Position numbers and translations under genes: made by a program. Positions 1 through 61,630 of a stretch of DNA of 64,000 nt are shown in pieces; the stretch's first letter is position 1, and each line of letters begins with the position of its first letter. A model generated the notes under the pieces. It was not told the DNA's origin, did not search any database, and worked only from the letters and a program-made list of their open reading frames with translations. Origin of the DNA: Elusimicrobiota bacterium (GTDB taxonomy: Bacteria; CG03; SLGR01; JBDRKX01); NCBI GenBank assembly GCA_043813605.1, contig JBDRKX010000047.1, forward strand, positions 53,539-117,538, given 5' to 3'.

Positions 1-300
1 GCCACAATACCTTTGAATTTCATCAGTTCGTCCCAGCTAAAAGGTTCTGCGAAATAACCCAAGGTTATATGCGGCATTCTTTCAGTGTGTTTTCCCCACT
101 CATCCCTTCTGGATGCTATAGGGTCCGTATTGTCTTCTGCAAGATATGACTGGACTTCCCAGAAAATACCCATTCCGATATCCCAGTTCAGTCCGCTCAC
201 TTCAGCTTCAAATGAAGGGGAGGCAATATCCGAAGCACGCGCCACTTCATCTTCCTTTATACCGCCCTGGGTAGTCAGGTGCAGTAATTCAGGTGCGACA
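1..300 (-). other. 2H phosphoesterase (LigT/CPDase-like) domain with paired H-x-T-x motifs; truncated by the window edge
   Basis: APELLHLTTQGG (verified at 241-300) and RMPHITLGYF (verified at 41-70). Confidence 0.45.
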
Positions 301-9300: not shown

Positions 9301-12300
9301 ATTTCTATAATCAGCCGGTTTTGACTGTCATCATATTGAAGAACGGGTTCTTCGGCAGGTTTTTCTGCAACTATTGCAAGCGGTATCTTTGGAAGGAAAT
9401 CGAATCTAGTGGCTATATGCCTGTTATAGAAATGTACAGATATGTTTCCTATGGAATGTAATAGCGCTAATATTCCGGCTACAGCTATTGCCGGAGTAAT
9501 CCCCTGACTTAAAAGAGTCAGGGCTACCGGTACAGCCATAGCCATCGAATGGACCGCAAGGATTATCCGGTCCAGCCGCGTAGCTTTTGCGGGTGGAGCG
9601 TTTATATCATAATACACCCGCCTGTGGGCGATGAGGAAGATGATCGTAGCAATAGAACCTGCGCCTAATGATGCCAGTACATTGTTGATATCAAAAGTGC
9701 TTCCAAGTAACGCCAGCCCGCCTGCAACAAATCCGAGCCCGTATGTCTCTGCGGCTTCGATCAATCTCCGGCCGATTATACTATGCACCCATCTTTCGGG
9801 CCAGTACGGACTGATTGCCAGCGGAGGTTTCCCGTCATATATCACTTCTTGAGAAAGCGTTTCCAGCCGCCGGGCTTCAAGGTATTCAAGTAATGTATGC
9901 CGTAACATAGATACTCTTTCAGCAAGGTCGACAGTAGTCTTGTTCAACTCGGCTATCAGAAACTTGACCTTATCTATATCCAGCCCTTCCCCGTTTTCTA
10001 TCCAATAATCAGAAAGGTCCCTGTTATCGATCACATTGTCTACTTCTCCCTTTATGACCTGTTCGAACGAGGTGAGTGTTTCCCTGATACTTCTCTTCCT
10101 GCCTGTCTCTGTAAGCCCGCGGTACATACGACGCGACAACCTTATCATACGGTCTTCTTCGAGATCATCAAAGTCCGCCTGGATAAAGAATTTCCTCACA
10201 CTTATACCTTCGGGTATTATCTCATCCATTTTCTTGCTTATCGCAAAAACGCCTTCAGCTATTACCAGTTTCTGTCCAGGCTGGAGTTTGACTGTTTTAT
10301 ATCCCACCCGTTTTCTCAGATTCCGGTCGTAATCAGGTATTTGGGTTTCTTTTCCTGCGAGAAGATCGCTGATATTCTTTTCAAGAAGTCCAAAATCATA
10401 AGGCCCGTTTTCAGTTGATTCAGCCACCAGGACAAACCTGGGATCGTTTTTATCAAAATTATATATACCCATACCTATTAACAGGTTACCCTCAGCTATA
10501 TCTTCGACCATCATGGTTTTCCCCGCGCCGGACAGGCCCCCGAGCAGTACAAGGCTGCCGTCAGGCATATCATCCGTAAGCCGCTTGAGTAAACCATCTT
10601 CATACGATATCTTTTGCGGTATTTTTGCAGCAGGTTTTACTTCTTCAGCTTCAGCAGTTTTTTCTGGAACTGCAGGATATTCTTTCCCTTCAGGCGTTCC
10701 CATAGTAACAAGTACTTTATGCCGTTTCCCGTCATTGACGAGGAGAATACCTTCTGCCGTTTCTATCCAGACTCCGTCCATTTCAATTTTTCCGATACCG
10801 GAGGAAACTACATCAGGATTTATCACTTCGATTTCATAGACAGATTTACCATATCTTTTTAAAACCTTAAACCCTTTTGCTCCCCACTCTTCGGGAAGCA
10901 CCGGATCGATAAACAGCCTGCTGCCGTCCCTGAATTTTAATCCCAGCATACTTTCCACCATTATCCTGAAGATCCAGCCGGCAGATCCCGTATACCCTGT
11001 CCATCCCGCCACGCCCTCGGGACTTATATCAGCAGCGGCGACATACGGCTCGCCCCTATAGTTTCTGTCCTTTGCATGTTCCGCAGGATTCAGAACCCTG
11101 TATACTTTCCATAATAGATCAGCGTATTTCCTTTGATCCTTGGAGCCGGTATCCTGACGCGCGATTATTGAAAGGGCCTGCACCATCCATACTATACCAT
11201 GGGTATATTGCCCGCCGTTTTCCCTGTCGCCGGGGTAATATTTTCCAAGATGCCCTTCCGGAAAATCTTCATTTCCGTTCACAGGTCTATCAAAAAGCCT
11301 TATGATATTTAGATTTTCATCATATAGTTCATCAAGCGCTGTCATAAATGCTTTTTTGGCAAGCTTTTCACCGACCGCACCGGATATTACGGACCAGGCT
11401 TGAGGTAAAGCAAATAGTTTTCTTATCCCGATACCCTTATCAGTAAAAGCCCTGATAAACCATCTCTTTCTCAGTCCTTTTTTAGCCAGTGCATATTTTT
11501 CTATATTTTTCGAGAGTTCACTAGCTCTTGATTTATATTCTCCGGCAGTTTCACTATCGCCTTTCTTTTCTGCCAGCGCGGCAAAATCCATCAGGGTCTT
11601 ATACAGAAAAAATGCAAGCCAGACACTTTCTCCTTTGCCTTTGATTCCTACTGCATCCAGCCCGTCGTTCCAGTCACCGGATCCTATCAAAGGAAGTCCG
11701 TGTTCCCCCATCCTTTTATTGATGACAAAGTCAATGGACTTTTTCGCGTGTCCATACACTGAAGCCGTCTGCTCTGGATCATCCGAAGAAATAAATTGCG
11801 TGACATAGTCTTTTTCATCCGCATTAAGAAGCCTGCCGCTCAGATACGGTATTTTCTCATCAAGGATATCCATATCACCCGTTACATCGACATAGTGCGC
11901 CAGGCCGTATGACAGCCACAGAAGATTATCCGATATACGTGTTCTTATTCCCAGGCTGACTTCCTTGCCATTTTCATTTATTCCGTAATCATGCCACCAG
12001 TGAAGGACATCTCCTTCAGGGAACTGCCTGGCCGCACACTTTATAAGATGTTCACGGGCCCTCTTGATATCTTCAGGAGTATTTGATGAAGCCAATGTCA
12101 GCACTGTCTGCAACTGATCCCTGAAACCAAAGGCACCTCCGGGCTGATAGAAACCGGTCTTTCCGAGATAATGCCATACAACTGCCTGATAACGCATCCA
12201 ATCTATCATCTTATTGAAGTTTTTATCAGGTGTTTCAACAACAAGATCATTCAGATAAGAATTCCAATTTCTCTGCCCTTTATTAAAAGTCTCACTAATA

Positions 12301-15300
12301 CTGGAAGGATCACTGTATTTTTTCATCAGTTCAGCAGCTCCGACTCCTGCTGCATCGTTTTCCGTCATGCCAAGTATATAAGTTACCCTGGACTTATACT
12401 CATTTTTTTCATTAAGGTTAAGCCTCACTGTTATCCCGGAAAACGGATCTGCCGCTGTCCTGAACACATCATTTCCCGCTGTAATAACAGAAGCGTCTTC
12501 CGCTATTACATTATGAAATGCTATCGAGTCAGGAACCAGCGCATCGGGATTGCGCGCCAATATTGTATCGTGTCTAACCTCAGTTTTCGTGTTATCTACG
12601 GCATTATTATAATCCCTGCTTAATGCCCACTTAAGAAAACTGCCTATCTCTATCTCTTTACTGCCCTCAGTTTTATCACCAAGATATTCGATATCGATAT
12701 CCCAGAATTCGACAGGCTCATTGTCGCCGGAGACGAACATCGTCATAGAGATCTTCCAGGTGTCTTTCTTATCATATATGTATTTGATATATCCCTGGCC
12801 TATTTCAACCTTATATACATTTTGATCCCTGTCTGGCTTAGGATTTGCAGCTATTGACCATTCCCGGCCGGTCTGGATGTCTTTTACAAGAACGCCTCTC
12901 AGAGGTTCTTCTGTAACTATATCCGGTTCGGCCGCAGTTACTCTCTTCTGCTGGGCATTACCATTAAAACTGAACACCGACCCTGCGGCGGTAGCGGCAA
13001 AACCGTATCCCGATTCATTGGCCACCACCTGGGTATAGGGTTTACCCGTTGCAAAAGGATCTTCTAATGTATAGGCGCGGCCGTCTTCTGAAAATATTCC
13101 GGCGGCTTTCTTTTCTTCCTTCGGTTCAGGGATTTCTCTTTTCATCCTCCATTGACGCCGGGCATGGGATGCGAACCAATCCATATATTTTTTCAAGCGC
13201 ACTTCCCGGAGAACTGCTTTATGAGTTTTTTCGCCTGCCGCCTGTTCCTGCTCTTTCAGATAATTATCATCCCTGTATTTGCCCAGCAGGCTTTTTACTT
13301 CCTTTCCATTTGAAGCCCTTCCGATCATAAATGTCATGCTTTTTTCACTGCCAGCCTTCAGTCTCATTTTCTTTGACAGGGCGCCGGCAGGATCCCTGAC
13401 ATAACTGGTCCCGGATATCAGTCCTTTTATCATTGCTATGGGTGATGACAGATTTCTAAGGCGCCCTATGAAGTTCATCCTGCTTTCAGCATGGCTGTCA
13501 ACTTGCCCGTCTCCGCCTATAGCGAAGAAGCCGAAAGGCTGCTGGTCCTGAGCATCTCCTGTAACCCTGCGGCGGGCGGTTATTACTTTCAGCTCTTTAT
13601 CGTAAGAAGCCCCTAACGTGAGTTTTCTGAATATAGTCGCATCCTTCCAGGCTACCATATGATCCATAATCCATTCAAGGTAACCGATAATATCCAGTTC
13701 CCGGTCAGTACCTGTATTGTTTATAAGCTGCACTTCCCATACCTCAACCGGATCATTCTTCGATACAAACCCGCTAACCTCAACTTTTATCTCACCTTCA
13801 GGAAGTTCCAGAGTACCTGTAATAATTATCTTTCCGTCCTGTACTTTCGTATCTAACGGCTTCAGCCCGACCGGAAGCATCTCACCGGTAGCCACGTCTT
13901 TTATGTAAAATATGCGGTTGTAATAAAGAGCTTCTTCTCCGAGCCAACTCGAACCGCCGCCTTCAGATGGAGCATGGATCGTATAACCGTGATGTCCTTC
14001 AAGAGCATCAGGCAGTTCAACTCCTACCTGCTCCTGCCTGTACTGGTATTGATAGTCATAGGCATTAGCTATATCGCTTTCAACCTTTTCTTCTTCTACC
14101 GCGTATTCGGATTGAGGCGTATTTAAAATCCGTTCAACGATACCGATTCGGGAGACAGCTGATAAGAGTGCTTTTTCTGTCTTTTCATCCAAACCTGCTC
14201 CTTCTATATCTTTTTTACTCCCTGTCACTATATAATACGGTTTCTCCTCCCGGATCAATCCTTTATCAATAAGGGCCGGTATACCTTCCAGTTCATCTTC
14301 AAATACAGCTCCCCTGTTAAAAGGATTGGTATGGAATAACTCCTGCAGATACCCGCCGCTCAGCAGATTGAATATTGAAATAGCTCCCATACCTGCGGAA
14401 TGGTGCGCATATATTCTGGGCGTTATTATTTTTGTTCCATCTTCTTTAAATTCAACCGACTCATAATATCCTACAGGTGTCTTCAATCCCATCTTTTCAT
14501 ATTTTCTTAAAGCCTTAAGGGATTCTTCCGAAGCCCACGGAGCCTCCATCTGGGCCGCATACGGAGAATATACTTTACGATTGATAACTTTACCGTCAAT
14601 GTTCTGCGCGTTACCGGCGACACCTATCGGACCGTAACCGACCCAATCCCCATTATCCTTCGGATCATAGGCTGTCTCGGATTGTCCAAAAACACCTTTC
14701 ATGGAGGCCGCAAGTTGTCTCCGGGTTGTTACAGAATGGACTTTGCTCAGCATTTCGGAATCATCTTCCCGCATAATGATCCCGGGAAGCTTGACTTCAA
14801 ATGATGAGCCGTGCCACGGCAGAGCAGGGACACCGGCTCCTTCCTCATTGGTACCCTTGAGAAATCTCTTCAAGTGTTTCCAGTGATGCTCCGGCAGCTG
14901 GCCTTCCATGATTCCAAGCATACTCGCTATCCTGTTTTCACTTAAAAGAAGGTCATAATAACCGTCACTGCCATGAAGGCCACTTTCAAAACCTTCAGTT
15001 TTCCTGATGTCAGCGTGCTGCCCGACGAAATGAAGGAGTCCGTTTTCTTCATTATAAAGCCTGTCGAACCGCATATCCCTGACTATTTTCAATATCCGCG
15101 CCTGGAGTTCGGGATCGGATATACTGCCTTCCGCCATTAACATAAATGCCGCGAAATTACCGTTATCGACCGTAGATATGGCCGCTACAAAATCATCGGG
15201 ATGGATGATCTTTTTCTGTTTATTATTTCCATTCTTATACCAGCTATCCTCGTATACATATAAATATCGCGTATTGTACCAGTTATATAGATGTCCCTGG

Positions 15301-18300
15301 TATTTGGGCAGTTTCTCAATAACGGCAACGGTGTTCCGCAGCCTTTTCAGGGCTTCTTCTTCTGTTATACTGCCGCTCTTCCATTCCATGACAGCAGTTA
15401 AAATATTTAATCCGATATTTGTAGGAGATGTCCTATGGTCTATTTTACTTCTGGCTTTCATAATCACATTGATTTTATTTTCCGCCCAGTTTCTTGTCAC
15501 AGGCAGCTTTGTAATAAAACTCAGTATCCGGATTTTAAGTTTATCACTGCCGGATAAGTTTAAGATAACATTATCCGGCGTCAGGAAATCGACGCAGGTC
15601 TCGTTAAGAGACCCTGTTTCAGGATCTACTTCACTTATGCCGGTCTTCGGATCGATCTCGGCAGGCAGTTTTTTAATATCTTCAAAAGTTGCATTGGCAA
15701 AAAGGTTATGATACCTGAAAGCCTCATTTAGTATTTCCTGATATGATCTGCGGCCGGCACGGCTCAACTCCGGTATTTTTCTCCCGGCTTTCTCAGGCAA
15801 AGACGGGATCGCAGTAACTGAGGCAGGTTCTTTTTCAGAAATTATGACTGTTTCAGGTATCTTAAATTCCTTCCCATCTCTTGTCCTGAATTTGGCCTGA
15901 TTTATTATTCTAACAGCGCTCTCCGGGCCGCCGCCGATTGTTATCGGCGCATCATCTTCATCACCTACGGATATTGCTCCCTCCAGGTTCAATATACGCC
16001 CGTCATTTCCAAACCCGTTTAAATATTTATCTGCTATGATTAAAATATTCTTATCACGGAGATCAGACAGATTATTTCTTTTCTCAACTGCTGCTTTAAA
16101 AACTTTAAAAGCTTCCAGTTTATCTGAAGTACAAATGTCCAGATTCTGATCTTGTGAAATATATATTTTTAAATCGTTTATCCCTTCAAGCTCTAACTCA
16201 TAACTCATTACATCTAAAGTCAATTTGTTGACGATACTTCTAAACTCCGTTAGAGTTAAGCCGGTTCCCCGTTCTAAATATTCTTTAATTTTGATGTTAC
16301 CTTTCAGGCTGAAAGGAACTTTGGTTTTATCTATGATTTGCTGTATTCTATTAACCTCATCTATACTAACTGTATCAATAAAGCCTCCAATCAAACTTAT
16401 ATTATATTTATTCCCTTCTTCTTCTTCTGCAGTTAACTCATACTTCGTTATTAAATTATTTATATACTTGACATCATTTTCTTTAAATTTTATATTTTCA
16501 ACGTGACCGTTATTTTCCAGTCTTGAACCATTAGAAGTGAAAATATAAAGATTCGCCCTGTCTCCCGTAATATACGGCAGTATATTTTTCCTGAGTGATT
16601 TTATTCCCCTGCCTGAGGCCAGCGCCACAGGTATTCCCATATTGAGAAGAATAGAGATTACATCTGCTATTTCTTTTGAAATCCCGGGAGTTAAAGTCAA
16701 AGTCCCATCTACATCGAAAAAAGCTCCGTGTTTGACCGCTTTTAAGGAATCCTCAAGCAGATTTACAGCGGGTTTTTCTTTTGCCGGTTTGACGAGTTTC
16801 ACGCCGAATTCTCTTTCTATATCTTCAAGCGTTATCCTGGCAGCTGCGCAGTTCGCTTCGCCTGCCCCGTAAGTTATGTGGAATATATTGTCATTTTTAT
16901 TAAAAACGGCTGTCGGATAAACCTGTTTCAGATCCAATTTCAGTAAACCCTTGAACCGTTTATATTTGGAATACCCGTAGATGCCTATAGCTTCAGCTAT
17001 TTCAGTATCTTTTGAGGGATATAGCAGCGGTTTTGGCTGGCCTACAAGCTTCAGGTTTTCATCAAAACCGGCCACCTCAGTAATATATACCCGATCGATT
17101 TCTCCGGCTTCCTTTTCATAAAACGCACGGTGAAGAAACATAAGATATTTTATTTTCCTTCCCTCAACAGGTATGAGCGGCGAGCCGCTTCCTACCCATT
17201 GGCCGTCAGGCGCATATATAACCGTATCTTTATCAAGGTTGAAACTATCCCAGAATTCAGCTCTTATTTTTTCATCAGTGATCAGATCTATCAGTTTTTC
17301 CGCGGAACCGATCTTTGTTATCTGTATGTCAGGTTTTATTCTGTGAATAAGTATAATGTTCCCGTCTTCCATCTGCTGGACTACGGCATTTTTGTGGTAA
17401 TAATCATTAAATCTGCTGCTCCCTATCGGCCCCTGATACTCAAATGTCTTCAGATCTCTGCTGAGAGCTACTGCCGGCCCTAATAGCTCATCCCATCCTG
17501 TTTCGGCATTACGTTCCACTTCGACATAAGTTACACACCACCATTTTTCACCTTTTATGGTTATTTGCGTTAGTCTCGGATTTTCAAAACTCCTGATCCT
17601 GCCACCTACAATTTCATCGTCAGCGGATATAAGCACCCTTAATGACTTTTTATCTACCTCGTATTCAGAAGTATCGCTGTTATAGGTGACATCGCCTATC
17701 CCTATAACGGAAGAAGTATCCTCATACCACGCTCTGAACACGATTTTATCATCTTCTATGTGCGGGTTTATTACACCCAGTATTTTACCTCTGGCGCTAA
17801 ATTCTGGGATGTCTTTTATATCATCTAATCCAAGTATTATCTCTTCACCGGGTTCTTTACCGTACCGTTCAGTATGGAATTTCTCTTCCATCTTCTTCAG
17901 GGTATCCTTATCCGTTACCCCGTAACGGCCATTGATAAATGCTCTTGCAATTGTCCTTATTTTTTGTAATAACCTGCTTATTGCCGGTTTCGGATAAAAT
18001 GTGATCCTCTCCTCAGGCATGATTATACGCTTCACGACTTGAGGCTTTTCGGCTTCAGCCCGCTTAATATCAATGGTTTCGATCACACTTTCAAGATGCA
18101 GTGAATGTTTACTGTTTAAATCGACAAGATAATCCCTTACATTATCTATATTATCCGCGACGACTATTCCTTTCTGCAATATGGTATAAAGAAATTCTGC
18201 TGATAAACTGTGCTCGTTTAATTCATGTTCGACCGCAGACAACAGTTTTACAGCATTTATGATATTTTGCTCAGGATAATCTTTGAATATTCCATCGATC

Positions 18301-21300
18301 TTTTCATCAGTTATTCCCAATTCCTGTAATTTATAACTTACTGCATATCGTTCATCTACATCAACTTTCAATTCTCTGATAATGTCATACATCGAGACCC
18401 TTGCCGCAGCGCAGTGAATATCTCCCGCGCCATAAAAGATATGAAGGACACCGTCTTTTACATAGCCTTCCGGAAAAGTATTCTCCAGATCAAGCATGTT
18501 TCTTGATTTAAATGCTTTATAAGCTTCGTATCCGAACAGACCGATAGTATCTGCCATTTCATAATCTTCTTGCGGAACAATAAATGCTTTAGGCTTGCCA
18601 ATTAATTGTAAATCTTTGTCAAGGCCGACAATTTCCCCTACATACCGGCGCCTTTGCTCTCCCTCTTCTTCTACTCTGAATGCCCGGTGAAGTGTAAAGA
18701 GATACTTTACATTGCCAAAATTATTTACAGGGATCAGTTGTGATCCGCCTCCCAGCCACTGTCCTTCAGGCGCTGTTAGAATTGCATCTTTGTCAGCATC
18801 AAAGCCTTTCCAGAATTTATTTCTATAATCTTCATCATGCATTAAACGATATACATCCTGAATAGAACCTATTTTCGTTATCTGAATGGCCGGTTTCAGC
18901 CTGTGTATCAGGACTATGGTTCCGTCATCAAGCTGCTGGAGGATACCGTCTTTGTGGTCCCTCTTTGAATAATAAGGGGCGCCTGTCCCAAGCACTCCAC
19001 GGTCATCAATCGTTTTTAAATCACTGCTTAGCGCTATCGCCGGGCGTACGGACCATTTACCCTCTAACTTTACCGCTTCGGTATATGTAACACACCATTT
19101 CCCGTCGATTTTAGTTAAACGCGGATCTTCACAAGAAAATGATTTAAAACCATATTTGTCTGCATCTTTTGGTGATATAAGCATCCGTATCGAGCCTTTT
19201 ATTATCTCGAACTCTTTGAGTTCCTTGTTGTAATCGAGGTCAGCAGCGCCTATTGAGGATACTCCGTTCGCATACCAGACACGGAAAACTATTTTATCGT
19301 CCAATACACCCGGATTAAATACACCGATTATTTTGCTCTTGATATCAAAATCAGGAAGCGATTCGATATCTTTTATACTAAGTACCAGTTTTGAATATCT
19401 TTCCGTATTGAAAGATTCTTCCGATTCTTCCAGCTTCTGTCTGTCCGTTACCCCGTATTCAATAGTTGTTTCTTCGATCATCTCAGCGACTACGGCAGGT
19501 TTTTCAATTGAAGCAACAAGATCTGCTATTATCGAACTCTGCTCGGCACCTGATATTTTTTCGAGCATTATTCCCGTGATATCTCTTCCTTCTAATACAA
19601 GGTAGCCCCTGTTATCACCATAGTGCTCGGCATGTCCGACATCCACATTGATTATCAGCTTATTCTTTTCATCATAGACTCTTATCCTATCCCCGATTTC
19701 AGACAAGGGCGGCGTATGGGCAACTATCTGCTTCAGCTCCGCAATTCCAAAATAGGTTACAATATCCCCGTTGTAATCCGCCCAGAATAAGCCGCCAGTT
19801 CCGCGTCCGCCCCGTGACTCACCCTGATTGAAAATATGATCCCTATAGCTGGCTTGCTCTATTCCGGCCTTGAAGCGTTCATTAAATTCTTCGTTTAATT
19901 CAGATGCCGGACGGCCTTGTGATAATTCATTGACCACTCCACCGTGCGCGAATATCATGCCGCCGGCATAATACGTTGCCTGCAGCCTGTCATATGCAAT
20001 ATCATCAAGCATATCAGCCAGCATACCTTTAATAACAGGATGGTCAGCTAATGCCTTAAACTCCTGTTCATCCTTAACAGATTTAATTCCTATGCTTTTT
20101 ACCAATCGATCACCGCCGTCAGCGAAGAAGGCAGGGGCGTAGTTATAATATCTGTTAAACAATTCCTGTTCTGCATCAAAATTAAAGGATGCCTGCAATT
20201 CCATGTTCATCTTATGGAACGCTTGAATAAACTCCAGCTCGTGGTTGCCGAGCAGTCTTACTACCTTTCCGCCCTTTGCTTCGGCTTTTTCCTGGAGATC
20301 CCTTATAAATTTAACCGCCTTGATACCATCCGGACCGCGGCCTATCATATCTCCCATCTGAACCAGTACAGTATCACCGCCGATCCAGTTATCTTTATCA
20401 TCTATCAGACCTGCGTCTCTAAGGTCATGCTTAAAGGCATCTAACGAACCTTCAATATCGCCGATAACGACATGCCTTCTATCAACAGCTTCATCCATCG
20501 TCGCTATACTGCGCGTGTCACCTCGGGTCCAGCCTTCCCGGGCGTTTTCTAATTGAATTCTTTTTGCTTGAACGTCTTCCCTTGTTATAGTGCCGGCGGT
20601 TTCAACCGGTTCTCTGAAATATGGTTCTGATATTTCAGGTATAAAATCCGCATATTTATCACCTAATATCAGTCTGGTTAATGCATAATCACTGCCCAGC
20701 ACTTCCCATAACTTAAGTACTGACTCCTTTGTAACTTTCTTATAATCAATAAGATCTAATTTATTGGAAGCAAAAGGCCAGTCTCCTTCATTAAGATAAG
20801 AGACAGGCAGGATAAAAATTCCTAAATTTTCATATTCGCGGCCGCCTTTTTGAATAAATTGATCCTCAGCTATACTTACTATTGCCGGCATACCGTAGAT
20901 ATCAGCAATAACAAACCTATGCATAGATCCCCCATCTCCAATAGCAGATGACTGATCAGGATAAATCTTTCCGCCTACACGCCTATCGTCATCTATATCA
21001 ACTACAACAGTAGTAAAACCTTTACCACTCAGTATTTTATTGACCTCATTGGCATACTTCTCGCAAACAGCCGGATATTCGATGGAACTTCTATAGCCCG
21101 TCAATTTTACTTCTTTCTCTGATTTTTCTTTCTGTATTGCCAGAAGGCCCATAACTTCTTTGATTTTGGATATACGTTCAGTATTCAGACTATTGCCTGT
21201 TATCTTTTCATATATATCTATGAACTTTTCCAGATCCATATTGGAATATAAATGATACACATAAGTTTCTTTTCTAACTATATCCTGGGCTAATCTAATT

Positions 21301-24300
21301 AATTCTTTCTGAATAGGTGTCTCTAATATTTTTTCATGTGCATCATCAAAGGAAAGGCCTTCTTGAAGGAGTTTCTGGAGGGTAAGTTCGCGCTCTATAA
21401 GAGCGTTAATCATTTTAATAACGGGCTTATTCCCATGCTCTCCGTATAACGCGGCAAACAATTTCTCATGGATTACCAGCATACCTTTGCCTGTCTTGTA
21501 ATCCATATCCAGCCAAGCCAGCATAAACAAGCCTTTATTTCTTATCAGCCTGTCGTCTGCTATTACCTTTACATCAATACCTTCCGGTATACCCAATAAT
21601 TCCAGAAGCTCTTTGTCAGCATTAAATTTTCTCTTTAAATCTTTTATACCGTCTTTTTCAAAGTCTTCCAGTTCCATCAGTTTTATTTCCTTTTTGGAAA
21701 GATATATATTGAGCAATATTTCAAATAGTTTATATATTGATATCCCCTGCAGCATTCCCGGCAGTTCAGGAATCTGTCTTTCAGTTATATCAACTCCAAA
21801 CTGTTTCAGTACTACAAGCGCTTCACTGAAAGGCGATGCCTTTACCAGCAACTTAACCATATCTGAAAGTGTACCTATATGCAGCATACTGATTTTTGCG
21901 ATCCCGGCTGCTGTCATCTCTTTCCTGCCTTTATCTATAACATCAGATTCAACAGTCTCGGTAATCAAACCGGCGGCCGCCTGATCAAGGAATACATTGA
22001 ACGAAGAATGGTTTTGAAAAGCGGTGGCCGGGACTTCGTGTGTTATCTCGCCGAGGATAGTCTTCTGAATAGCAACTGCTTTGCCTTCACCACTTGCAAG
22101 AAGCATTATTTCCCGGGAAGCGATAATATCCGCTATGCCCATGGTCAGAGCCTGCCTCGGAACGTCTTCTTTCCTTTTAAAGAATCTGGAGTTTGCCTCT
22201 CTTGTCTCTGGATGCAGATCGGTAATATGCGTAGATATAGCCGGGTCTGTACCGGGTTCATTGAAGGCGATATGACCGTTATTCCCTATACCGAGTATCG
22301 CTATATCTATACCTCCGGCATCCTTTATTGCCTCCCTGTACCTCGATATCTCCCCATTGATATCCGGAGCAATACCATTAAGGAAATTTATATTCTCTTT
22401 TTTTAGACCGTGGTGGTAAAGATGACTGAACAATTTTTCTTCCATGAAGAACCTGTAACTCTGGGAATGGTTTATAAGGTCTTCATAATAATTCGGGAAT
22501 ATATACTCATCCAGGTTAAAAGTAATAACTTTTGACCAGTCTACTTCGGCACCCTTGTTTATAAGTACTTTATACATGCCCTCCGGGGTAGAACCGGTCG
22601 CGAAGCATACTGTAGCTCTTCCCTTTTCTGCTATTTTCCTATTTATTAAATTAATAAGTTTGGCGGCTGCCTTTTCACTCATTTGATCATAGTCGGCAGA
22701 TAGTTGAATATTAAATCCTGCCGGAGGCTCATATTTATCCAGGAATGCAGCCATTATCATCTCAGGAGTCTCTAATTTTTCGATCTCATTGATAATCCAG
22801 CTTGCTTTAGCACCATACATATTCGTGAAAGACTGATTAAACGTATTTTTCTTGCTAAGAAGAACAGTTTCTCCTCTCTTTTCTACTTTTGTATCATCTC
22901 CTGATCGAAGAATCTCTAAATAATCGTGAGCATCCCGGATAAATCCGACAGCTGCTTCTTCTCCCATAACTTCTTTTATCCCGTTAAATATAGCTTTCAT
23001 AGAAAGTGAATTATCATAAATCATCAATTTGCTTAATACTACGAGTATCTCGAAAGGAGGATATCTCCTGGCAAGATCTATATCAAAAACTTTTAATACT
23101 CTTTCACCATCTCTTGAAACATAACCTAGATTCTCGAATTTAACATCTATAGGAAATTCAAAGCTATAACCGTTATATATTCCGGTTTGTTTCCATGTAT
23201 CCCGGTTAATTCTGCACGCTTCCAGATATGTTTTAACAGCATCGGTTAAAACCAGATACGCCTTATCTTCGCTGAGTCCTTCAAAATCTATACGTTCGGC
23301 ATATTCTTCAGTACTTATTATTAGGCTGTCTGTTCCATCGGAAGAGGTTACATTGTTTCTTGAAATAGCGATTTTTACCGCATTTTCACTCCTTGGCCAT
23401 ATTAAGAAGGTATCACCATAAAACGGATCTTTATCGTGCAAATCATCCCTGAATAATTCTGTTCCTTTGGAACTCTGTGTTTTAAGTACAAATACATATC
23501 TCTTGTTAACAGTAACTTTGTATGCTTTTTTAAAGTTCCCTTCGCCGATATATTCGACATTTACATCCTGTATTTTTTCCAATATGGATTCGTTGTAGAG
23601 TTTTGATACTGTATCTTCAATTATCCATGGATTACTGTTAATAATATCCATGCCCGGTTCTGATTCTTTTTCAAGTTCCGCGTCTGCCAATATAACTTCT
23701 TTACCAACAATCGGCTTTTTACCTACCAACTTACGGAGAATCTTTTTATCCGGTATTAAGTCAAACCATGGATTTCGTTGTATAACAGCGCCTATAATAA
23801 AATGCTCTTTATTTACAATCTTGTTCCTGTAAGTGTTTCTATCGATAAAAACAGGCGTCCTGCTCTTCACTACCGACCCGGTATCGATAAGATATGCTTT
23901 AAGCTCGCCGCCTTTTATGCGGCCGATCATGATATTATTAGGATTCAGATCTGTTAAATATTTATTATCTATTAATTCATTTATCAATTGCCTTATCAAT
24001 TCCAGTTCTTTTGAAGTCAGTTTATCGTATTCAGCGACGCTCGTGCCTTCGACCTTTTCGGAAACCATGTATCCCAGTTCATTATTTATACCGAACCGAC
24101 CGAATGCTGAAGGTTTCTGGCTTAATCCTGAATCAGAGAGTTCCGCCATCATCTTATATTCATGTTCCATACTGACAGTACTGGCCCTGATTATTTTGAT
24201 AACCTGTTCATTATCAAACGGATGGATGAATACGGCGCCGTTCCCGCCTTCCGCGAGGAATTTTGCTTCTCTTACTTCACCGTTGATCTCTACTTTGAGT

Positions 24301-27300
24301 TCATTCTTCGCCTGTTCATAGACAAGTCTGAATTCTTCAGCAGGTTTTACCTTTTCTATTGCTTCATAATGCCTTAATAAAACATCGCGTCTTGCCAGGA
24401 TCCCATTAATTTCCCGGTCAGTTAAATAAGCCGTAAGGGAGGTAAGTACCTCACGGTTCAAGCCTCTTAATTTCTCTATAATCTCTTCGTTAAACTCGAT
24501 AACTTCTAAAGAAGGTGGAAGTAAACTTGGTCTAGTGAAACTTTCGCCATTATCAATAGCGATCAGGTTATTTTCGGAATCGATCAATATGTTCTCCCCA
24601 TGCCAATCCATAATATTTCCAAGATAATCCAGTATAAACAGTGCGTTTAACTGTTTTTTACGGTTTAGATCTTTTGTTTTTTGTGCTTCTCTGTAATACG
24701 TTCTGTCGTATTTAGTAAACAATGCCGAAAAAATACCACTCAATATACTGGAATGCGGCCGGGTATTGTCGATCCATAATTCAACTGTAACTTCTTGGAG
24801 CTCTCCGTTGATCTCTATATCTCTCAGTTCTACAGGCGGAACATTTGTAAAGCCCAGTATTCTTGATAACCTGTAGACAGCAGCAGAATACCTCGGCAGA
24901 GACCTGGCATCTATGGTATCTACTGGTTTTATCAGGACTTCATATCCGCTCTCTGTTATTGCAGTATAGTGTTGGCCAAAAGAAGCTAATCTTTTCAGTA
25001 GAGGGAATTTAGTTATATTCAATATCTTTTCATTTTTCAGAGACTTACCTATATCTTCAAAAGGTATGTTCGTTATATTTCCTATTGTTTTAGATATTAC
25101 GCGCTTTTTGTCATTAATATCCGAAAAACTCCCTCTAAAATATGTTTTCCTGAAATTACGCTGAAAATGCTTTAAATACTTTTTCTGTTTTCTTATCTGG
25201 GATCTTGTCAGGCGTTTGAAAGTATCAGGATAAACAGTAAATACTTCACCAGTTGTCTTATAATCGACAATATTCAGTAGAGACTTATGATGGAATTCTA
25301 CCGAATCAAGTGTAGAAGTAAACTGAAAGGCCTTATATCCCCGTTCACTGAGATTCGCCAACAGTGTCTCAGTAAGGAATGTACCCCGGCCTTTTATACC
25401 GTCCTTTACTGTAGCCACATATATACCGTCAGCCTTTTGACCATCAGCATCCGTTATAACCGGCTCCCACGCTCTGAATCCGGTTACATGCCCGTTATTA
25501 TCTATCAGTACCATCTGGTTCATTATCCGCCAGATCCGGTTATTGTCTATGCTGATATCATTCAGTATATAATCCGCCGCCATATACTTATATTCACTAA
25601 AAGAATCTGTTAGGTGATCTGTGCCGTATTTAGAAAACGCCTCTGACAGATCTACTATACTGCCCAGTTTTTCATCTTTCGCTACAGTAAACTCCTTGAC
25701 CAGAAGATCCGTCATGATATAATTTTTCAGTTCCAGAAGCCTGTTTAAGCGAGAAGGAGACTCAGTACTGTCTCTTTTGTCTTCCACAATATCCAGCACC
25801 CTGATACCGGATTCCGGCCTGATACCCAGTCTGTCATATTGTTCTTTTATACTTTCAACATCGAAAAGATCATCTTCAATTGATCTTATCAGCTCAGCAA
25901 ATTCCTTTTCAGAAACTTCGGAAGGTTTACCTTTATCTTTGAATATGGTCTTTAAGCCCGGATATATATCGGATATCCATTCATTATCCCCTGTTATTCC
26001 CATAAACCTGTATATGACCATCTTCAAGGTCTGGTATGCTATATTCATTGCCCAGGTAAATGAGAAATTCCTGTTATTCAGTTCTTCCAGCGCGACAGAG
26101 TATTTTCTTGTCCATTCTGTCCGGGTGCCCCGCTGCATCGATGTTCCTGCGCCCCTTACGGACGGCAAGATTCCTATTATACCGGGTTTACTGTATTTAT
26201 ATATTTCCCCATATTCATCCCAGAGGTCACTTTCAAGAAGCGGCCTGGGCCCGAATAACGACATGTCTCCTCTAAGTACTGCGAATACCTGCGGTACCTC
26301 GTCAAGAATAGTCTGGCGGAGTTTCATCCCGAACCAGCCCACATGTTTATCCGGTTCCCGCATTGTCCTCAGTTTATAGACATTGAACGGTTTTCCCTGG
26401 TATCCGATCCTTTCCTGCATGAACACCGGTGTACTTCGTGTTTCTATCGCCACGATCGGTGAAATAAAAGTAATAAAAACTATTGCCGGTATCAAAAAGA
26501 GAGACGATATGACAATATCCATTATTCTTACGGATCTCGATCCTGCGATATTTTTACGGGGTTTCTGTATTAGCAATTGAGCCAGATCAGTTACATTATC
26601 CAGTATCGCTTCTTCTATCTTAGCAGGCAGGTTTATCCGCACTGCATCAGTTCTCTCTGCATCCAGCAGTCTTACCGGATTATCGAGCATCAGCCTTTCG
26701 GTGAGCAATACTACAAGCAGCTCTTCAACAAATACTGAGTCATCACTATATTCTTTCCCATAATTGTTTATAAAATATCTTTTAAGCTGTTCGAAATCTT
26801 TTATCTGTGTATCTTCATATATCCCGGGATCTTTTAATTTTGCGAGTATATTCGCTAAATCTTCTTTATACTGCTCGGCGGTTTCTGCCGTAGTTTCCTT
26901 TGCCGGTTCAGTAATGATCTCTACCAGCTGCTTTTTCCTGCCGGTAATAACATTAAACATCGATCTGGCATTACTTACAGTATGGAGTAGGATCGGAGCC
27001 CATACCGTGCCCGTTATATACATGGATAATGCGTATACAAAAGAATCTCCCATAATATAGAAAAGCATATCTTTATCCGGTACTCTCTCCTGGTCTACAT
27101 GTTTCTTAGCAAACCACCAGGAACTCGCAAGACCCGTAATAAGTAATGCAGGTATCTCTCCTATATACGGCGTAAGCAGCGTAAACGGCAGATAGAATGT
27201 CACTCCCCTGTGATATATCTCTTCCCAGACAGGCGTGACAATGACCCTTATCCTCATCCATACGGAATCTAGCATTTCTCTGCGTATTTCAGGTTGATAA

Positions 27301-30300
27301 ACAGTGAGTTTTTCTCCAGCTATGGCAGGTTTACGATTCAATATGTAGTTTATATATACATTCTGCCAAACCAGAACAATGATATAGAACAATGGGAACA
27401 AGAGTATTTTATAATCATATTCAAGTATACCGGGAGCTATGACATAAGCAAGCATAAGAGCAGCCCCGCTCTTTATACCAACACCTAAACTACCCACAAA
27501 AGACATCTCTCTTTTGCTGTTTATATAATTTCTAAATACATTCTTAAGCAGGTTTTCTTCTCCGAAGACCTTCCTCTGGATACCAAGGTATATATCCCTG
27601 TGGTCTTCATAATCCTTTTCGCCAAAAACAGCTGAATATGCTTCGTGAAAAAGTATCTCGTCAAGATACTTCTGATACGTAGAATCGGTTATAAAATCTC
27701 TTGCTATGGCTATTTCGGCGGAATTCGCGTATGCGAGCATGTAATCTTCCCTGCCCTTTACTACCGCGTCAAATGCTACTATATCACCCCGCGCAAAATA
27801 TTCTTCCAGCCTGGCAAGTACAAGCTGCATCTTTTCATCACCCGCAAGTCCGGCACGGTCTATCTTTTCCTTCAATTCGTCCAGTTTTCTCCGGATAAGC
27901 ATTTCTCCTGCACTGTTCAGTTTGACCGTTTCTACCTTTCCTGCTTCTTCAAGCGATCTGCCTTTACCTATAGCGCCGCCGACAGCAAGTACAGGAACCG
28001 CTTTAGCTTCCAATGCCCTGTAAATATCTTTCAGTTCGGTTTCAAGGGATTCTTTTATATTCTGTAAATATTCTTTTGCAGATAACGGCTTGTTTTTTAT
28101 AGCTCTTTTTTCTTTGCTCGGCAGTGTTGTATCAGGTGAATCTGTGATATCAGTACTGTCTCTGGATTCATAACCCCTCATCCTGATACCCTCGGGGCCT
28201 ATAAGCGCATAGGCGCCCTGTCTGTCAAATTTTTCAGACATACCTTTATCTACTCCGAAATGCGCGTATTTCTTATCTTTGACCATAAAAGGAAGGTTAA
28301 GTTTTATCAGCGTATTGTGACCGGTAAACCAGTGTAGGACACCCAGTCTGGACTGTATATCGGCTATACCTATTTTCTTTATATAATAGTTTACGTGGTT
28401 GGGCTTGATCTTTATTATCTTATCCGCATACCAGGAATATACCCTGTCGAGCGCCGGCCATCTTTCCCTGAGACTCCTGCCCGGAGCTCTAAGATCGGAT
28501 GATATGATATCAAACCCTTTAAATAGATTTTTCCCTTTATATTCTTTGCCTTTATATTCAACAATTATATCTGCTCTGTTTTTTCCTGCGGTCTGGACAG
28601 GGAACCAGCTGTGTGTTACCAGGTTACCGTAGATATCTTTAGAATACAGGCTAAAATTCCGGCGGGTATATTCTGACATGGCCTGCAAGGTATGGCTTCT
28701 CAGATAGTTTGCCTGGGTGACTTTTTCGCCTTTAAACTCTCTCCGGTCTTTATTTATCAGTTCGATATCGGTATCCGGATCTTCGATCATACTGTTAAGT
28801 TCTTTAATAACGGATTCTCCCCATCCCTCATGGCTTGACCAGTCTTTGAACCACCATTCGGTAGATTCGTAGGCCTGTGTGTTTATCGATTCGAATACCC
28901 TGTACCACCACTGTTCTTTTCCGCCGGACTTTTTGTCTTTTACCGCAATATCCCGTCTTTTTTCAACTATCCCGGCAAGCTGTCCGGCAAGAGCCACTGC
29001 ACCGTCCCAGGCATCCAGCTCGGTATTATCAGAGATCCAGATGCCCCGTCGGGCCTCCCTGCCTTTCATCAGTTCGCTGTGTATCCTGTGCCACCACTCG
29101 GGGGATGTCTTACCTACACCGTTTAATCCGACAAACGGTGACGGAACCTTTATCCTTTCGAAATTTCCAAGAAATTCTTCCCATATATCCTTCTGCTGGC
29201 CTGTCCAGCGTTTTTTATGTTTATTATGGAGTCTTATATATTCTTTTCTGATATCTCCTATTTTTCCGTCGAGTACTTCCTCCTGGAACCTGTTCTGTTC
29301 ATCATTGTATTCAGCCAGTCGGGCCGCCCACCATAACATGTTTTCGCGTTCCGCTTCTTCTCCCGCATAATTCTCAGTATTTCTGTTTCTTCTAACCAGT
29401 TCTTCTGCTACACTGTCGCCGTGGAAATCAAAACCTTTATACCACGGCAGATGCCCGCCTTCCATATTACCGTGCACCAGGAGACAATGGTTGCCCGGCA
29501 CATAATCGACCTTCTCTTTTCCCGCTTCGTCCAGTTCCATGGCAAGCAGAGTGCACTTTATACCGTGAGCGCCCCTGTCAATATAATCACCATTTAAAAT
29601 TATCTTTGCGTTTATATCATCGAACGATACTCCCTGTTCTTCCAGCTGTTCTGCCAGCGGCACCACCCCGTATTCGATCATCACTTTTTTGCCCGTGAGC
29701 TTGGACAGCGCGTCACTCAAAAGCGAATTAAACCTGTCGATATCTCCGTGAAAATCCGATATAACCACGGTCTTGGGCAGATTACCTGTACCCGGTTCAG
29801 CCAGTTCTTTGTCTATCTCTCTACGCAGTTCATTGATCTGGGCAATACGTCTCGCTTCAAAAAAGATACTATAGATAAAAGGATCAGTAGAGCTCCAGTT
29901 TTCTTCCATGACATTATCTATCATTTCACGTATACCAGGAGTCTCTATCCTGAGATATTTATCGCTTATCCTGCCGACCGTCTTGTCTATCGGCACGTTT
30001 TTACTTATACGGTCATATATGAAAGGGCCGATCGTACTGTTATAGAACGCGGCAGAATCAGCTTCAGATAATGCCAGTAAAGCCTTGTAATAGTGGCTGT
30101 CTTCCGATACCCGTGCTAACATTTCCGTTCCGGCAAGACTTACAGTACCTAATCCGGCGTCATGATGTTCGATCAGAAACATCATATCTTTTCTCACTTC
30201 TTCCGGTATAATTCCTTGAAGCAGATAATCAGCATAGCGGGCACTGTTACGCGGGTGCAATAGTTTTTTTCTTACCTCTTCATCGAGATTGTTGTCAGAT

Positions 30301-33300
30301 AAATACGGCATCCTTGCAGCAGGGAGATACCTCTCTATATCATGAAAAAGAGCCGCAAGTATAAGCGCCATATCCGCATCAGGTTTGATCTTAAGAAGCC
30401 AATCCAGTACTTCTTTATAATGTCGGCGGTCTGTCAATTCAGTATAGGCATCTTCTGGGTCTATAGTATCGTATATGAATTCTGCGAGTTTAAATGCCGC
30501 ATCCAGCCTGCTTTCAGCAGTCTTAACGCCGTACTGCTGCATCCGGTTCAATATAGCCTCTTTCTCTGTCTTAATTACAGCAGGCAACAATATCTTGCCG
30601 GTATTTGTCCTGTAGAGAAGTTCTGCCGCTTCTTTTTCACCTTCTGTCAGTTCATCGTATTTTCTGCCCTGGGCTTTCGTATTGTACCAGGCTATCGCTT
30701 TATCCAATTCAAGCACTTCTTTGCCTTTTGTGTACTTTGCAGTTATCCCTATCAGTTCTTCTTCTATCCTATCAAGCCCCTGGTAACTCAAGGCGGGGAA
30801 CTGGATAATAAAGGATTTTATATCCCTTATCTTTTTCTCCTGTTCGATACGCGTAATATCTTCTTCGCCGATATCTCTGATATTTCCCCAGTTTTCCCTG
30901 GCTTTAACCATCATAATTTTAACATCTTCAGCATTTTCCAGTATCCGGTTCTGATAGTAACGGAAGAGCCACAGTTTCAGAGCCAGCCCCCTGACACCCA
31001 TCCTGCTTATAAGGTATATATCCGCCTGCTGTTCTTCCCAGCGCAGGCTGTCATCAGCTGTCAATCCTTCCCTCTTGAACACCTTTTCAATATCCCAGGC
31101 ATTAATAGCCGTGTGATGGCCTTTTTCGTGCAGTACACCGGCTTCTATGATATTCTCCCCGAGTTGAGGTGAGACTTTTAATATTGAATTCATCAATTCT
31201 ACATATTCATCATCTATTTCCAGTATCTTGTTTTTATGAACAGACATGAAATTATCCATCCTGCTGAGTATCATCCGGCCAAATCCGTGTTTACTTGCTA
31301 TCTCTTTTATTTTTTTGAGCGTCTCGAAATACTCTGCGGTCTTTACCGAAAGCGGTACTGTTTTGCCCGGTTTTTCGGACAATTCTATTACGTCGAGCCC
31401 TTCTATCTCGTCAAGCTCTATGATCCCGAGCATCGCTCTCGGTCTTTCCTGTTCCGCTTCAGGTTGCACTATAACCGTCCGCGCACCTTTTTCTTCTACA
31501 TATACTGTTATCCAGCCGGGTATGTTCACACCATACTCTTCAGCAACTTTAATAAACGTATCATAATCTTTCCCGGAATAGAATGTTATTTCATTTAATG
31601 CTTCAGCAGGCAGTTCTGCTACTCCCTTTAACCGGCCTTCATCTGAGCGTTCGACATTCATTACATATTTTTTCTTTATACCTATAACCGCACCTAACGG
31701 ACCTTTGTTAGCAACAGTCAGCGGTGAAAGATCATCTAATGTATTTATGCCTTCAGGTATATACGCCGAGTATTCTTCATCCCTCATAGCCTCACTTGCC
31801 CGGGCGGCGACATCTTTTTCGGTGAGCATCCTGTAACCCATATACTCGCGCTCATGCTCTCTCCATCTTTCAGCAGTCTCACGGCTTGTTGTTACGAATA
31901 TCCCTTCCTCCACACCGCCCATAGCTTCATAAGTATTCTGCCGGCCGATACCTTTCTGTACCAGTTTCCCGTCTTTAAGGATCTCAAGGAGGTAGCTTGT
32001 TCCCTGCCAGTAGACAGATTCTTCAGGCCCAATACGCTTGAAGTTATATATATCTTTAAGGTGTTCAAGTTTTTTTGAATACTCGATCTCTACTATACTG
32101 TAAGCATCGACAGATGATTCATAAGCAACTTTTAAACTGAAATCTATCTTATCAGGACCGTTCATAAGCCTGCACGCCTCTTCCAGTTCTTTTGTATCCT
32201 GTTCAGATACAGGGAATTCCGGGATATCAACTATACTGCGCCCCGGCTGGCTGGCATTTATTAATTTGGCTATCTTGGGCCACTTCGCCCCTTCTTCATC
32301 CAGTCTCCGGTAATACCAGTCCTTAAATCCTGTCCACCATATCTCAAGGAACTCTTCACGTGTTGCAATACCTCCAATAAAGAACTTGACGGTGTTTTCT
32401 CTCATATCCAGTTCATATGGTTTGTCACCTTCAGGAGATTCATTTATAAACTCTGATTCGAACGGCAAGCTGTAATATCCCAGTCTCATAAGATAAGATA
32501 CCTGTTCATGCTGTATCTGTTCAAAATCGATCTCTTTTGATATTGCTCTCGGTCTCTCTTTTTTTACAGCTTTAACTTTAGCGGCAACTCGTTTTTTTGC
32601 CTCGATCTCTACAGAGAAATCTTCTCTGAGTATCTCCATCGCCTCTTCTGCTGAATCCACTATTCTAAGAATTGATTCCTTCTCATGCCGCTGGGTATCG
32701 TCACTGACAGCTATTGTCGGCGGATCATATGACTGCATTGTCTTGAATATGGTGTCTTTTATTGGTTCCCAGAAATCTTTGCCGATAAGTATTATGGGCC
32801 TCTTGGGGAACTTTTTCGTCTGCATACTGCAGAGTATGCCGAAAAGGTGCATCATTGTCTGCCGGCCGCCGGGAGCTACTACAATCGCCTGGGAGTTCTT
32901 TGAAAGAAGCAGTTGATGATTAGTATTTCCGGAGATTACTACATTGTTTTCTATTGTTTTTTCATTTTCAGTCTTATTTTCATACTTATCCATTGTGAGC
33001 GTAGACTGTATCATACTCATATCTTTGCGGTCTGTGGATTCGACGATCTTATCCAGGAGCGTTCCCCGGCTGCCTATACGTACCGGAACTCCCTCAGATA
33101 TGATTTTGTCTTTGAGTTCCCCTACTGCATCAAGAGCATCAGCATCGTTTATTATATGCGGTTCCCCCATGAATGTCACACTCGTATCCATACTGCTCAG
33201 TTTACGAAGACCAGTATTCAGCTGCTCGTTAATGGCATTGAGCCTGTTTTCATCCATATCGATCGGTATGAAGTTCTTTGAAGCCTTTTTCATGAGTTCT

Positions 33301-61574: not shown

Positions 61575-61591
61575 TTCTGTTTAAAATACAT

Positions 61592-61630
61592 AAAAAAAAC
61601 CCGCACTCTGTTCATCTTAAAACAAAGTGC
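61592..61630 (-). terminator. Rho-independent terminator read on the minus strand: 8-bp GC-rich stem CCCGCACT/AGTGCGGG, 18-nt loop, followed by an 8-T tract
   Basis: + strand aaaaaaaacccgcactctgttcatcttaaaacaaagtgcgggttt. On the + strand only TTT follows the stem, so it is effectively unidirectional. It ends 18 nt before the giant ORF start codon. Confidence 0.7.

Follow-up and report, generated by a model that had tools for sequence, protein, structure and literature searches.

The DNA analysed here (hereafter the window) comprises 64,000 nucleotides of contig JBDRKX010000047.1 from an Elusimicrobiota bacterium (assembly GCA_043813605.1), and its content is a single giant open reading frame (ORF) on the minus strand together with the tail of one upstream ORF. 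Embedded in the giant ORF is a complete NagB-type glucosamine-6-phosphate deaminase/isomerase domain. The reading that we favor, with a probability of about 0.6, is that this is a complete, non-allosteric NagB module that performs the normal reaction of its family and faces the cytoplasm, within a membrane-anchored giant of more than 20,500 residues. The enzyme is ordinary; its host is a member of a recently described class of giant multi-enzyme proteins. The function of giant bacterial proteins, and the side of the membrane on which their modules lie, is a question raised by two recent preprints.

Identity and fold of the NagB domain

The domain occupies the following position, giant residue numbers being counted here and throughout from window 61580.

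21963..22697, minus strand: NagB-type glucosamine-6-phosphate deaminase/isomerase domain at giant residues 12962-13206; full length, running from the first strand through the C-terminal helix

A first-pass annotation made from the letters of the sequence had placed a NagB domain at 21950-22700, which is correct within about 15 bases of the profile span (21963-22697), and the signature motifs on which it relied (DWSKVITFNLDEY, GIDIAILGIGNNGHIAFNEPG and LLASGEGKAVA) are all present, letter for letter, in the minus-strand frame. The Pfam profile that it had proposed as a check, PF01182 (Glucosamine_iso), matches with an expectation value (E) of 1e-23 and 84.9 bits (cutoff 27), profile positions 2-219 of 225 aligning to window 22008-22694. 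The NCBIfam nagB model TIGR00502 aligns over 21963-22697 (E 4e-68, 229.4 bits, model positions 7-247 of 259) and outscores the sister models for galactosamine-6-phosphate isomerase (AgaI, 127.9 bits) and 6-phosphogluconolactonase (pgl, 71.3 bits). The 11 best matches among PDB sequences are all glucosamine-6-phosphate deaminases (E 4e-47 to 1e-37), with NagB of Bacillus subtilis (2bkv, E 4e-47) at the top.

The fold is equally clear. An AlphaFold2 model of the domain, built on an alignment of 56 sequences, has a mean predicted local distance difference test score (pLDDT) of 92.7 and a predicted template modeling (TM) score of 0.89, without any disordered segment. Foldseek ranks 1-21 are occupied by NagB structures only, with E down to 1e-27, and superposition on 2bkv gives a root mean square deviation (rmsd) of 1.9-2.0 Å and a target-normalized TM score of 0.92-0.93. 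The effector domains of CggR are found among the distant matches.

Catalytic and allosteric residues

The catalytic residues were checked in an alignment of the window domain with E. coli NagB (identical to 1cd5_A, 266/266) and five database homologues. Their loss would speak against the assignment, and no such loss was seen, Asp72, His143, and Glu148 all being kept.

Asp72 of E. coli, catalytic base: Asp13024, codon 22509..22511, minus strand; conserved, in an invariant alignment column
Asp141 of E. coli, charge relay: Asn13101, minus strand; substituted, Asn also in NagB of B. subtilis (2bkv) and Streptococcus mutans (2ri0)
His143 of E. coli, ring opening: His13103, minus strand; conserved
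Glu148 of E. coli, catalytic: Glu13108, minus strand; conserved
22257..22280, minus strand: motif N-G-H-I-A-F-N-E, which carries Asn13101, His13103, and Glu13108
Arg172 of E. coli, substrate-phosphate binding: Arg13132, codon 22185..22187, minus strand; conserved
Lys208 of E. coli, substrate-phosphate binding: Lys13167, codon 22080..22082, minus strand; conserved
Arg158 of E. coli, allosteric site: His, minus strand; not conserved
Lys160 of E. coli, allosteric site: Thr, minus strand; not conserved

Asn at position 141 counts as normal variation within the family, since the enzymes of B. subtilis and S. mutans have it too, and because the equivalents of Arg158 and Lys160 are absent, the domain is of the non-allosteric type. 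It is a bona fide non-allosteric NagB and is probably active.

If it works as its family does, the ring of glucosamine 6-phosphate would be opened by the His143 equivalent together with the Glu148 equivalent, and the aldose amine would be converted to the ketose imine via an enol-amine intermediate, with the Asp72 equivalent as base. The products would be fructose 6-phosphate and ammonium, and the equivalents of Arg172 and Lys208 would hold the phosphate of the substrate. Catalytic activity, in the direction of deamination, is thus what we would expect of the domain.

The codon usage of the NagB stretch lies at the 83rd percentile within the gene and is not an outlier. Recent horizontal capture of the domain was considered and found to be unsupported, codon usage being ordinary and the GC content at third codon positions (GC3) being 0.44 against a gene average of 0.43. 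Across the whole gene there is no general difference in GC3 between enzyme domains (0.44) and spacers (0.43).

A single open frame of 20,526 codons

On the minus strand, window 61580..3 is a single stop-free frame of 20,526 codons, for which the random expectation, at the base composition of the frame itself, is about 1e-602. Plus-strand frames in the window are all of 300 codons or fewer.

3..61574, minus strand: giant ORF of 20,524 codons or more, counted from the first ATG; 3' end outside the window
21879..22406, plus strand: ORF of 175 residues; not a gene, antisense to NagB, without a match in Pfam up to E 0.1

The first ATG of the frame is at 61574 and is followed by a hydrophobic N terminus, MKLINSIYIKFTSWMLVLSFVFVYVF. 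An artifact of stop-codon reassignment is ruled out, there being zero in-frame TAA, TAG, or TGA across 61.6 kb. The plus-strand ORF, which the first-pass annotation had dismissed as mere antisense, indeed lies opposite the NagB-coding stretch, and this is another case in which a mechanical list of ORFs gives the antisense shadow and misses the true gene.

The NagB domain is present in a single copy, and self-comparison of the giant reveals several old paralogous modules with 27-52% identity. A tandem-repeat scan found no tandem repeats in the DNA. Neither an RNA gene (by Rfam scan) nor a marker gene is present in the window.

Which side of the membrane NagB faces

Topology was assessed with a Kyte-Doolittle scan using a 19-residue window. 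The giant yields 19 hydropathy peaks at about 9 separate sites (about 15 hydrophobic segments), and its N terminus is hydrophobic; strong segments lie at residues 9-27, 829-847, 3377-3402, 4494-4525, 4623-4641, 4688-4706, 11364-11532, 11694-11712, 17301-17378, and 20066-20141. The features that matter most for the placement of NagB are these.

9684..26444, minus strand: stretch without a convincing transmembrane segment, residues 11713-17299, about 5,600 residues
26013..26528, minus strand: Bac_transf domain, a PglC-like small phosphoglycosyl transferase, residues 11685-11856; PF02397 E 6e-29
10941..13916, minus strand: GH94 supersandwich and catalytic domains, residues 15889-16880; PF17167 E 2e-70, PF06165 E 5e-53

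The sole peak of 1.7 or more between residues 11713 and 17299 (14971-14989) falls inside a HAD fold. Contained in this stretch are the catalytic domain of the transferase, three kinase-like modules, NagB, a metallophosphoesterase, two GH130-like domains, a HAD-IIB domain, and GH94. The hydrophobic helix of the transferase (LFLIPAIVFITFISPIVAI, residues 11694-11712, window 26445-26501) has a hydropathy peak of 2.65 and a Ser-Pro pair inside it. The transferase aligns with PglC (8e37, E 9e-18) over its full length, including the N-terminal helix, and keeps its catalytic Asp-Glu pair (within LDEVPQ) as well as PRP (within GPRP).

In PglC, the equivalent helix is of the re-entrant type and the catalytic domain lies in the cytoplasm. 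So do the catalytic regions of cyclic glucan synthase, and glucosamine 6-phosphate, like sugar phosphates in general, is an intracellular metabolite. Because NagB shares its stretch free of transmembrane segments with a PglC-like transferase and with GH94, and because the substrates are of intracellular type, we infer that the NagB module faces the cytoplasm and is tethered to the membrane. The giant as a whole would be a string of about twenty different enzyme domains with long unannotated spacers between them. The stretch that holds NagB would begin at the PglC-like helix and would include modules of phosphorylase type (GH94 and GH130-like) and of phosphatase type (HAD and metallophosphoesterase), all using phosphorylated or nucleotide-activated intracellular substrates. 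Among 916 long proteins of Omnitrophota, 46% were predicted to be membrane-anchored with the bulk in the cytoplasm; the same preprint placed the metabolic domains of a protein of 147,155 residues on the outer face (10.64898/2026.06.07.730766).

Some 160 residues before the transferase helix lies a region resembling the Rce1-like (CPBP) intramembrane proteases (residues 11364-11532, window ~26985-27491), with four or five hydrophobic segments. Such a module could, in principle, process the giant polypeptide.

Relatives of the NagB domain

A word-indexed search of 5.8 billion proteins returned 7,988 NagB homologues. The best 120 of these, without exception, are free-standing proteins 239-413 residues long, with 43-50% identity; the named ones are mostly from Firmicutes, and no giant protein carrying NagB is among them. 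When genome contigs were scanned with NagB and its flanks, only standalone NagB genes were recovered, through the pattern NNGHIAFN, and five flank patterns matched nothing related. No confirmed relative of the giant was found in a scan of viral contigs or in scans of metagenome contigs (with the C-terminal flank and with an alignment of the 'LEHED' module described below). Word-indexed protein searches with a 2,000-residue query over NagB and with the module alignment came back empty and are uninformative, candidates having probably been taken by unrelated long proteins. The sole named relative of any size is a partial Elusimicrobiota protein of 4,082 residues, with 29-36% identity over two modules.

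Two of the standalone homologues, P0001 and P0015, have in common an insertion of four residues in their first helix and a VCFATG motif, and may represent an exported or membrane-anchored NagB-like subfamily. The genes for P0015 and P0001 are located downstream of a Peptidase_M50-like gene in loci L081/L082 (10001-11242 in L081) and L085 (3818-4702).

Weighing the alternatives

A number of observations weigh against an active, cytoplasmic NagB. The topology is derived from plain hydropathy, not from a dedicated predictor. The TIGR00502 score of 229.4 is 7.5 bits short of the NCBI equivalog cutoff of 236.9, and two short insertions in loops (of 5 and 3 residues) are found in the window copy alone. 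Pfam and NCBIfam scans of the 20,526 residues detected no NagA deacetylase, no ROK/hexokinase-type kinase for glucosamine or N-acetylglucosamine, no GlmM/GlmU, and no SIS-type enzyme. No orthologous giant was found that would reveal selection on the domain. The nearest relatives in a neighbor-joining tree (no bootstrap) are P0001 and P0015, standalone proteins with a signal- or anchor-like hydrophobic N terminus, and the active-site motif of P0015 is degenerate (GEDGHIALDSPG), with the Glu148 equivalent lost. Finally, most domains of giant proteins were predicted by West-Roberts et al. (10.1101/2023.11.21.568195) to be extracellular, localizations that the authors themselves called unreliable.

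Several of these points bear on the possibility that the NagB segment is exported and acts on another substrate, in the periplasm or at the contact with prey or host, as in the 'extracellular effector' reading of predatory Omnitrophota. The N termini of P0001 and P0015 are signal-like and therefore leave room for an extracytoplasmic location, the giant itself has a hydrophobic N terminus and scattered hydrophobic segments, and extracellular or outer-face domains have been predicted in giants (10.1101/2023.11.21.568195; 10.64898/2026.06.07.730766), with the caveat just mentioned for the former. We consider export unlikely nonetheless, because the stretch in question starts with a PglC-like transferase that has an intact dyad and would depend on cytoplasmic uridine diphosphate (UDP)-sugars, and because the GH94, GH130-like, and HAD modules are of intracellular types. 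Nor are sugar phosphates expected outside the cell.

A cytoplasmic NagB might alternatively work mainly in the aminating direction, converting fructose 6-phosphate and ammonium to glucosamine 6-phosphate and so feeding UDP-sugars to the transferase 1,100 residues upstream. The reaction is reversible, the giant carries a sugar-1-phosphate transferase as well, and the scans of the giant found no catabolic partner such as NagA; against this, neither GlmM nor GlmU nor any further domain that forms UDP-sugars came up in the same scans, and both the equilibrium and the kinetics of NagB normally favor deamination. Net synthesis of glucosamine 6-phosphate therefore seems improbable to us.

The score slightly under the equivalog cutoff, the unique loops, the degenerate motif of P0015, and the CggR effector domains among the distant structural matches could together be taken to mean that the domain is catalytically silent, either as a sugar-phosphate-binding regulator (compare the NagB-fold effector domains of SorC/CggR) or as a decaying passenger of a fusion, there being no orthologue to demonstrate purifying selection. 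This, too, we would expect to be wrong: every catalytic or phosphate-binding residue examined is intact, bar the Asn shared with B. subtilis and S. mutans; identity to hundreds of standalone enzymes is 44-50% over the full length; and the structural model is confident throughout. Least probable is a sister specificity, that of AgaI or of 6-phosphogluconolactonase, which is suggested by the breadth of PF01182 (it spans all three activities) and by the narrowly missed nagB cutoff, but is contradicted by scores of 229 bits for nagB versus 128 for AgaI and 71 for pgl and by the identity of the 11 best PDB matches, all of them glucosamine-6-phosphate deaminases.

Immediate neighbors of NagB

An exhaustive HMMER search, run with the 1,103 residues that precede NagB against 1.84 billion representative proteins, gave 98 hits only. 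These delimit three consecutive kinase-like modules, and in none of the 98 relatives is there a NagB domain. The modules on either side of NagB are as follows.

24351..25091, minus strand: SCO1664 / PI3-PI4-kinase-like module, residues 12164-12410; TIGR03843 E 5e-7, weak PF00454
23880..24272, minus strand: YrbL-type kinase-like module, residues 12437-12567; PF10707 E 3e-10
22821..23648, minus strand: third protein-kinase-like domain, residues 12645-12920, ending about 40 residues before NagB
20472..21962, minus strand: unannotated stretch of 497 residues, directly C-terminal to NagB
20079..20471, minus strand: calcineurin-like metallophosphoesterase, residues 13704-13834; PF00149 E 6e-13

For the first of these modules, some 80 standalone relatives were found, each roughly 280 residues long. 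The YrbL-type module is present three times in the giant by self-comparison (residues 12394-12641, 17389-17616, and 18903-19129), and two of the three copies come after clusters of transmembrane-like segments. The third kinase-like domain contains a G-x-G-x-F-K-K loop, the lysine of FVLK, the D..N pair in 'PIDVKFENLG', and 'FDIDLAR'. It has about six relatives only: the standalone proteins P0127 and P0137, of about 330 residues; P0128, P0129, and P0131, HEAT-repeat proteins of 3,300-4,600 residues in which it is a module; and P0147. Its AlphaFold model is weak (pLDDT 60.6), and Foldseek returns kinases only (AmiN, APH(4)-Ia, homoserine kinase, and eukaryotic-type protein kinases) with E of about 1e-4 and TM scores of 0.3-0.45. 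A sugar-kinase identity for this domain was considered; the model is of low confidence, and the fold matches say only that it is protein-kinase-like, a group that includes small-molecule kinases. On the other side of NagB, the 497-residue flank has no match in Pfam (at a relaxed threshold), NCBIfam, or PDB sequences; a weak internal similarity links residues 13337-13436 to residues 6574-6674.

NagB may be functionally coupled to the adjoining kinase-like domains. The specific proposal that the adjoining third kinase-like domain and NagB form a tethered two-step pathway of amino-sugar salvage, from free glucosamine to glucosamine 6-phosphate and on to fructose 6-phosphate and ammonium, is in our view doubtful. 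If it were true, the giant would funnel amino sugars, β-glucans, mannosides, and α-glucans of prey or the environment into central metabolism and storage by means of linked enzymes, and NagB would be an internal marker that puts the metabolic modules of giants on the cytoplasmic side.

A map of the whole giant

Pfam and NCBIfam scans of the full frame gave about 20 distinct Pfam families at E of 1e-3 or below, 17 of them above the Pfam cutoffs and none in more than two places. In addition to the features already listed, the map contains the following.

Residues 981-1092: HD domain
Residues 2727-2991: α/β hydrolase, DUF3141 / PHB-depolymerase type
Residues 6698-6915: GDE_N
Residues 6972-7346: GDE_C
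From residue 7509: GH77
Residues 9323-9430: LOG-like domain
Residues 11441-11538: Rce1-like membrane protease
Residues 14042-14406 and 14553-14927 (window 18363-19457 and 16800-17924, minus strand): two GH130-like paralogues
Residues 14954-15150: HAD-IIB
Residues ~17011-17186: uridine-kinase-like P-loop, weak

The two GH130-like domains form a tandem pair with 47% mutual identity and a weak signature of GH130 (β-mannoside phosphorylase); neither has a match among PDB sequences. There is no Pfam or NCBIfam match in the final 3,300 visible residues.

The first-pass annotation had noted glucan enzymes and a sugar-1-phosphate transferase alongside NagB and had read them as a multi-step glycan-processing assembly line. 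The enzymes are there, in the form of GDE_N/GDE_C, GH77, GH94, the GH130-like domains, and Bac_transf, and their co-location with NagB on one polypeptide stands. A shared pathway has no such support, no amino-sugar partner enzyme having been detected. The glucan modules are 1,100-6,000 residues away from NagB and, by their best matches, would have neutral α-glucans and β-1,2-glucans as substrates rather than amino sugars.

A module of about 200 residues, termed 'LEHED' here, is present three times (residues 2412-2617, 3128-3356, and 4277-4470; window ~53730-54345, 51513-52197, and 48171-48752). Its motifs are GTGKNLMK, GHGG, and LEHEDxDxxxGHH, it matches no family, and it may be a metal-binding hydrolase. 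The module is found, too, in the partial Elusimicrobiota giant P0123 and in the ORF upstream of the giant. The latter (window 62284-63999, minus strand) continues past the end of the window and shows no match to Pfam in its 572 visible residues, of which 98-307 share 41% identity with residues 2427-2614 of the giant. It probably represents the final part of another long, paralogous gene. Between the two genes, a strong terminator-like hairpin (window 61597-61636, minus strand; a 17-bp stem, then eight consecutive T) has its end some 20 nucleotides ahead of the ATG at 61574, and no obvious Shine-Dalgarno sequence precedes that ATG.

Residues ~6900-8100 (window ~37280-40880) form a compositional island, with GC3 of 0.66 for GDE_C and 0.55 for GH77 against 0.43 for the gene, and the total GC of window 38001-40000 is 0.519. 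The glycogen-debranching and 4-α-glucanotransferase block is possibly a more recent capture.

Comparison with known systems

The best matches of solved structure are the monomeric NagB of B. subtilis (2bkv/2bkx) and the NagB of S. mutans (2ri0/2ri1), with E of 4e-47 and 3e-43, respectively. They have the same fold as the window domain (rmsd of about 2 Å, target-normalized TM score of 0.91-0.93) and share with it Asn at position 141, His at position 158, and the short form that lacks the C-terminal extension of the hexameric enzymes. According to the title of the 2bkv entry, the B. subtilis protein is a kinetically characterized monomeric deaminase. Apart from the two loop insertions, the difference is one of context: the B. 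subtilis and S. mutans enzymes are free proteins of 234-242 residues, whereas the window copy is internal, preceded by about 12,960 residues and followed by more than 7,300.

Hexameric NagB of E. coli (1cd5, 1dea), which is activated by N-acetylglucosamine 6-phosphate, is 34% identical, and the equivalents of Asp72, His143, Glu148, Arg172, and Lys208 are all found here. Its allosteric Arg158 and Lys160 are replaced by His and Thr. A free N terminus helps to build the allosteric site of NagB, and an internal domain cannot have a free N-terminal amino group.

A precedent for NagB in a fusion is provided by NF002557, the two-domain 'glucosamine-6-phosphate deaminase-like protein' of 653 residues, whose positions 34-278 match the window domain with 196.7 bits; for the remainder of the 653-position model, the flanks of NagB offer no equivalent. 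The cyclic β-1,2-glucan synthase Cgs/NdvB (8rf9, 8rf0), the C-terminal part of which is matched by the GH94 module (E 9e-132), is a precedent for a very long, membrane-anchored polypeptide with several carbohydrate-active domains. Cgs, however, has about 2,800 residues, makes one product, and has no NagB, whereas GH94 is here one of about twenty unrelated modules.

The architecture as a whole matches that of the multi-enzyme giants described for Omnitrophota. Giant genes of this phylum that encode many enzyme domains, scattered transmembrane helices, and dark spacers have been named 'Archaeovorins' (West-Roberts et al. 2023, 10.1101/2023.11.21.568195), and a class of giant proteins has been described under the term 'multi-enzyme metabolic cluster' (10.64898/2026.06.07.730766). 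Shared with them are an ORF of far more than 10,000 residues; many Pfam families with none dominant; a content of sugar-metabolism, HAD, HD, and kinase-type domains; scattered hydrophobic segments that may be transmembrane helices; long unannotated spacers; and old paralogous modules without tandem repeats in the DNA. SecA-DEAD (present in most full-length giants), C39 peptidase, dockerin, and TSP3 have no match in the 20,526 visible residues of what is an incomplete ORF. NagB (PF01182) goes unmentioned in the text of both preprints and in one supplement (10.1101/2023.11.21.568195; 10.64898/2026.06.07.730766), and a literature search found no paper joining a NagB domain and giant proteins.

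This is where the domain gains its interest. With an intracellular sugar-phosphate substrate and a PglC-like transferase nearby, the 5,600-residue part in which NagB resides is read by us as cytoplasmic and tethered, the opposite of an 'extracellular cell-wall-degrading' reading of such proteins. For NagB, both nagB mutants and standard coupled assays are available. As a module of about 245 residues, confidently predicted and from a well-understood family, it offers a practical handle on the activity of a giant protein, on the function of a module in isolation, and on the side of the membrane to which it belongs.

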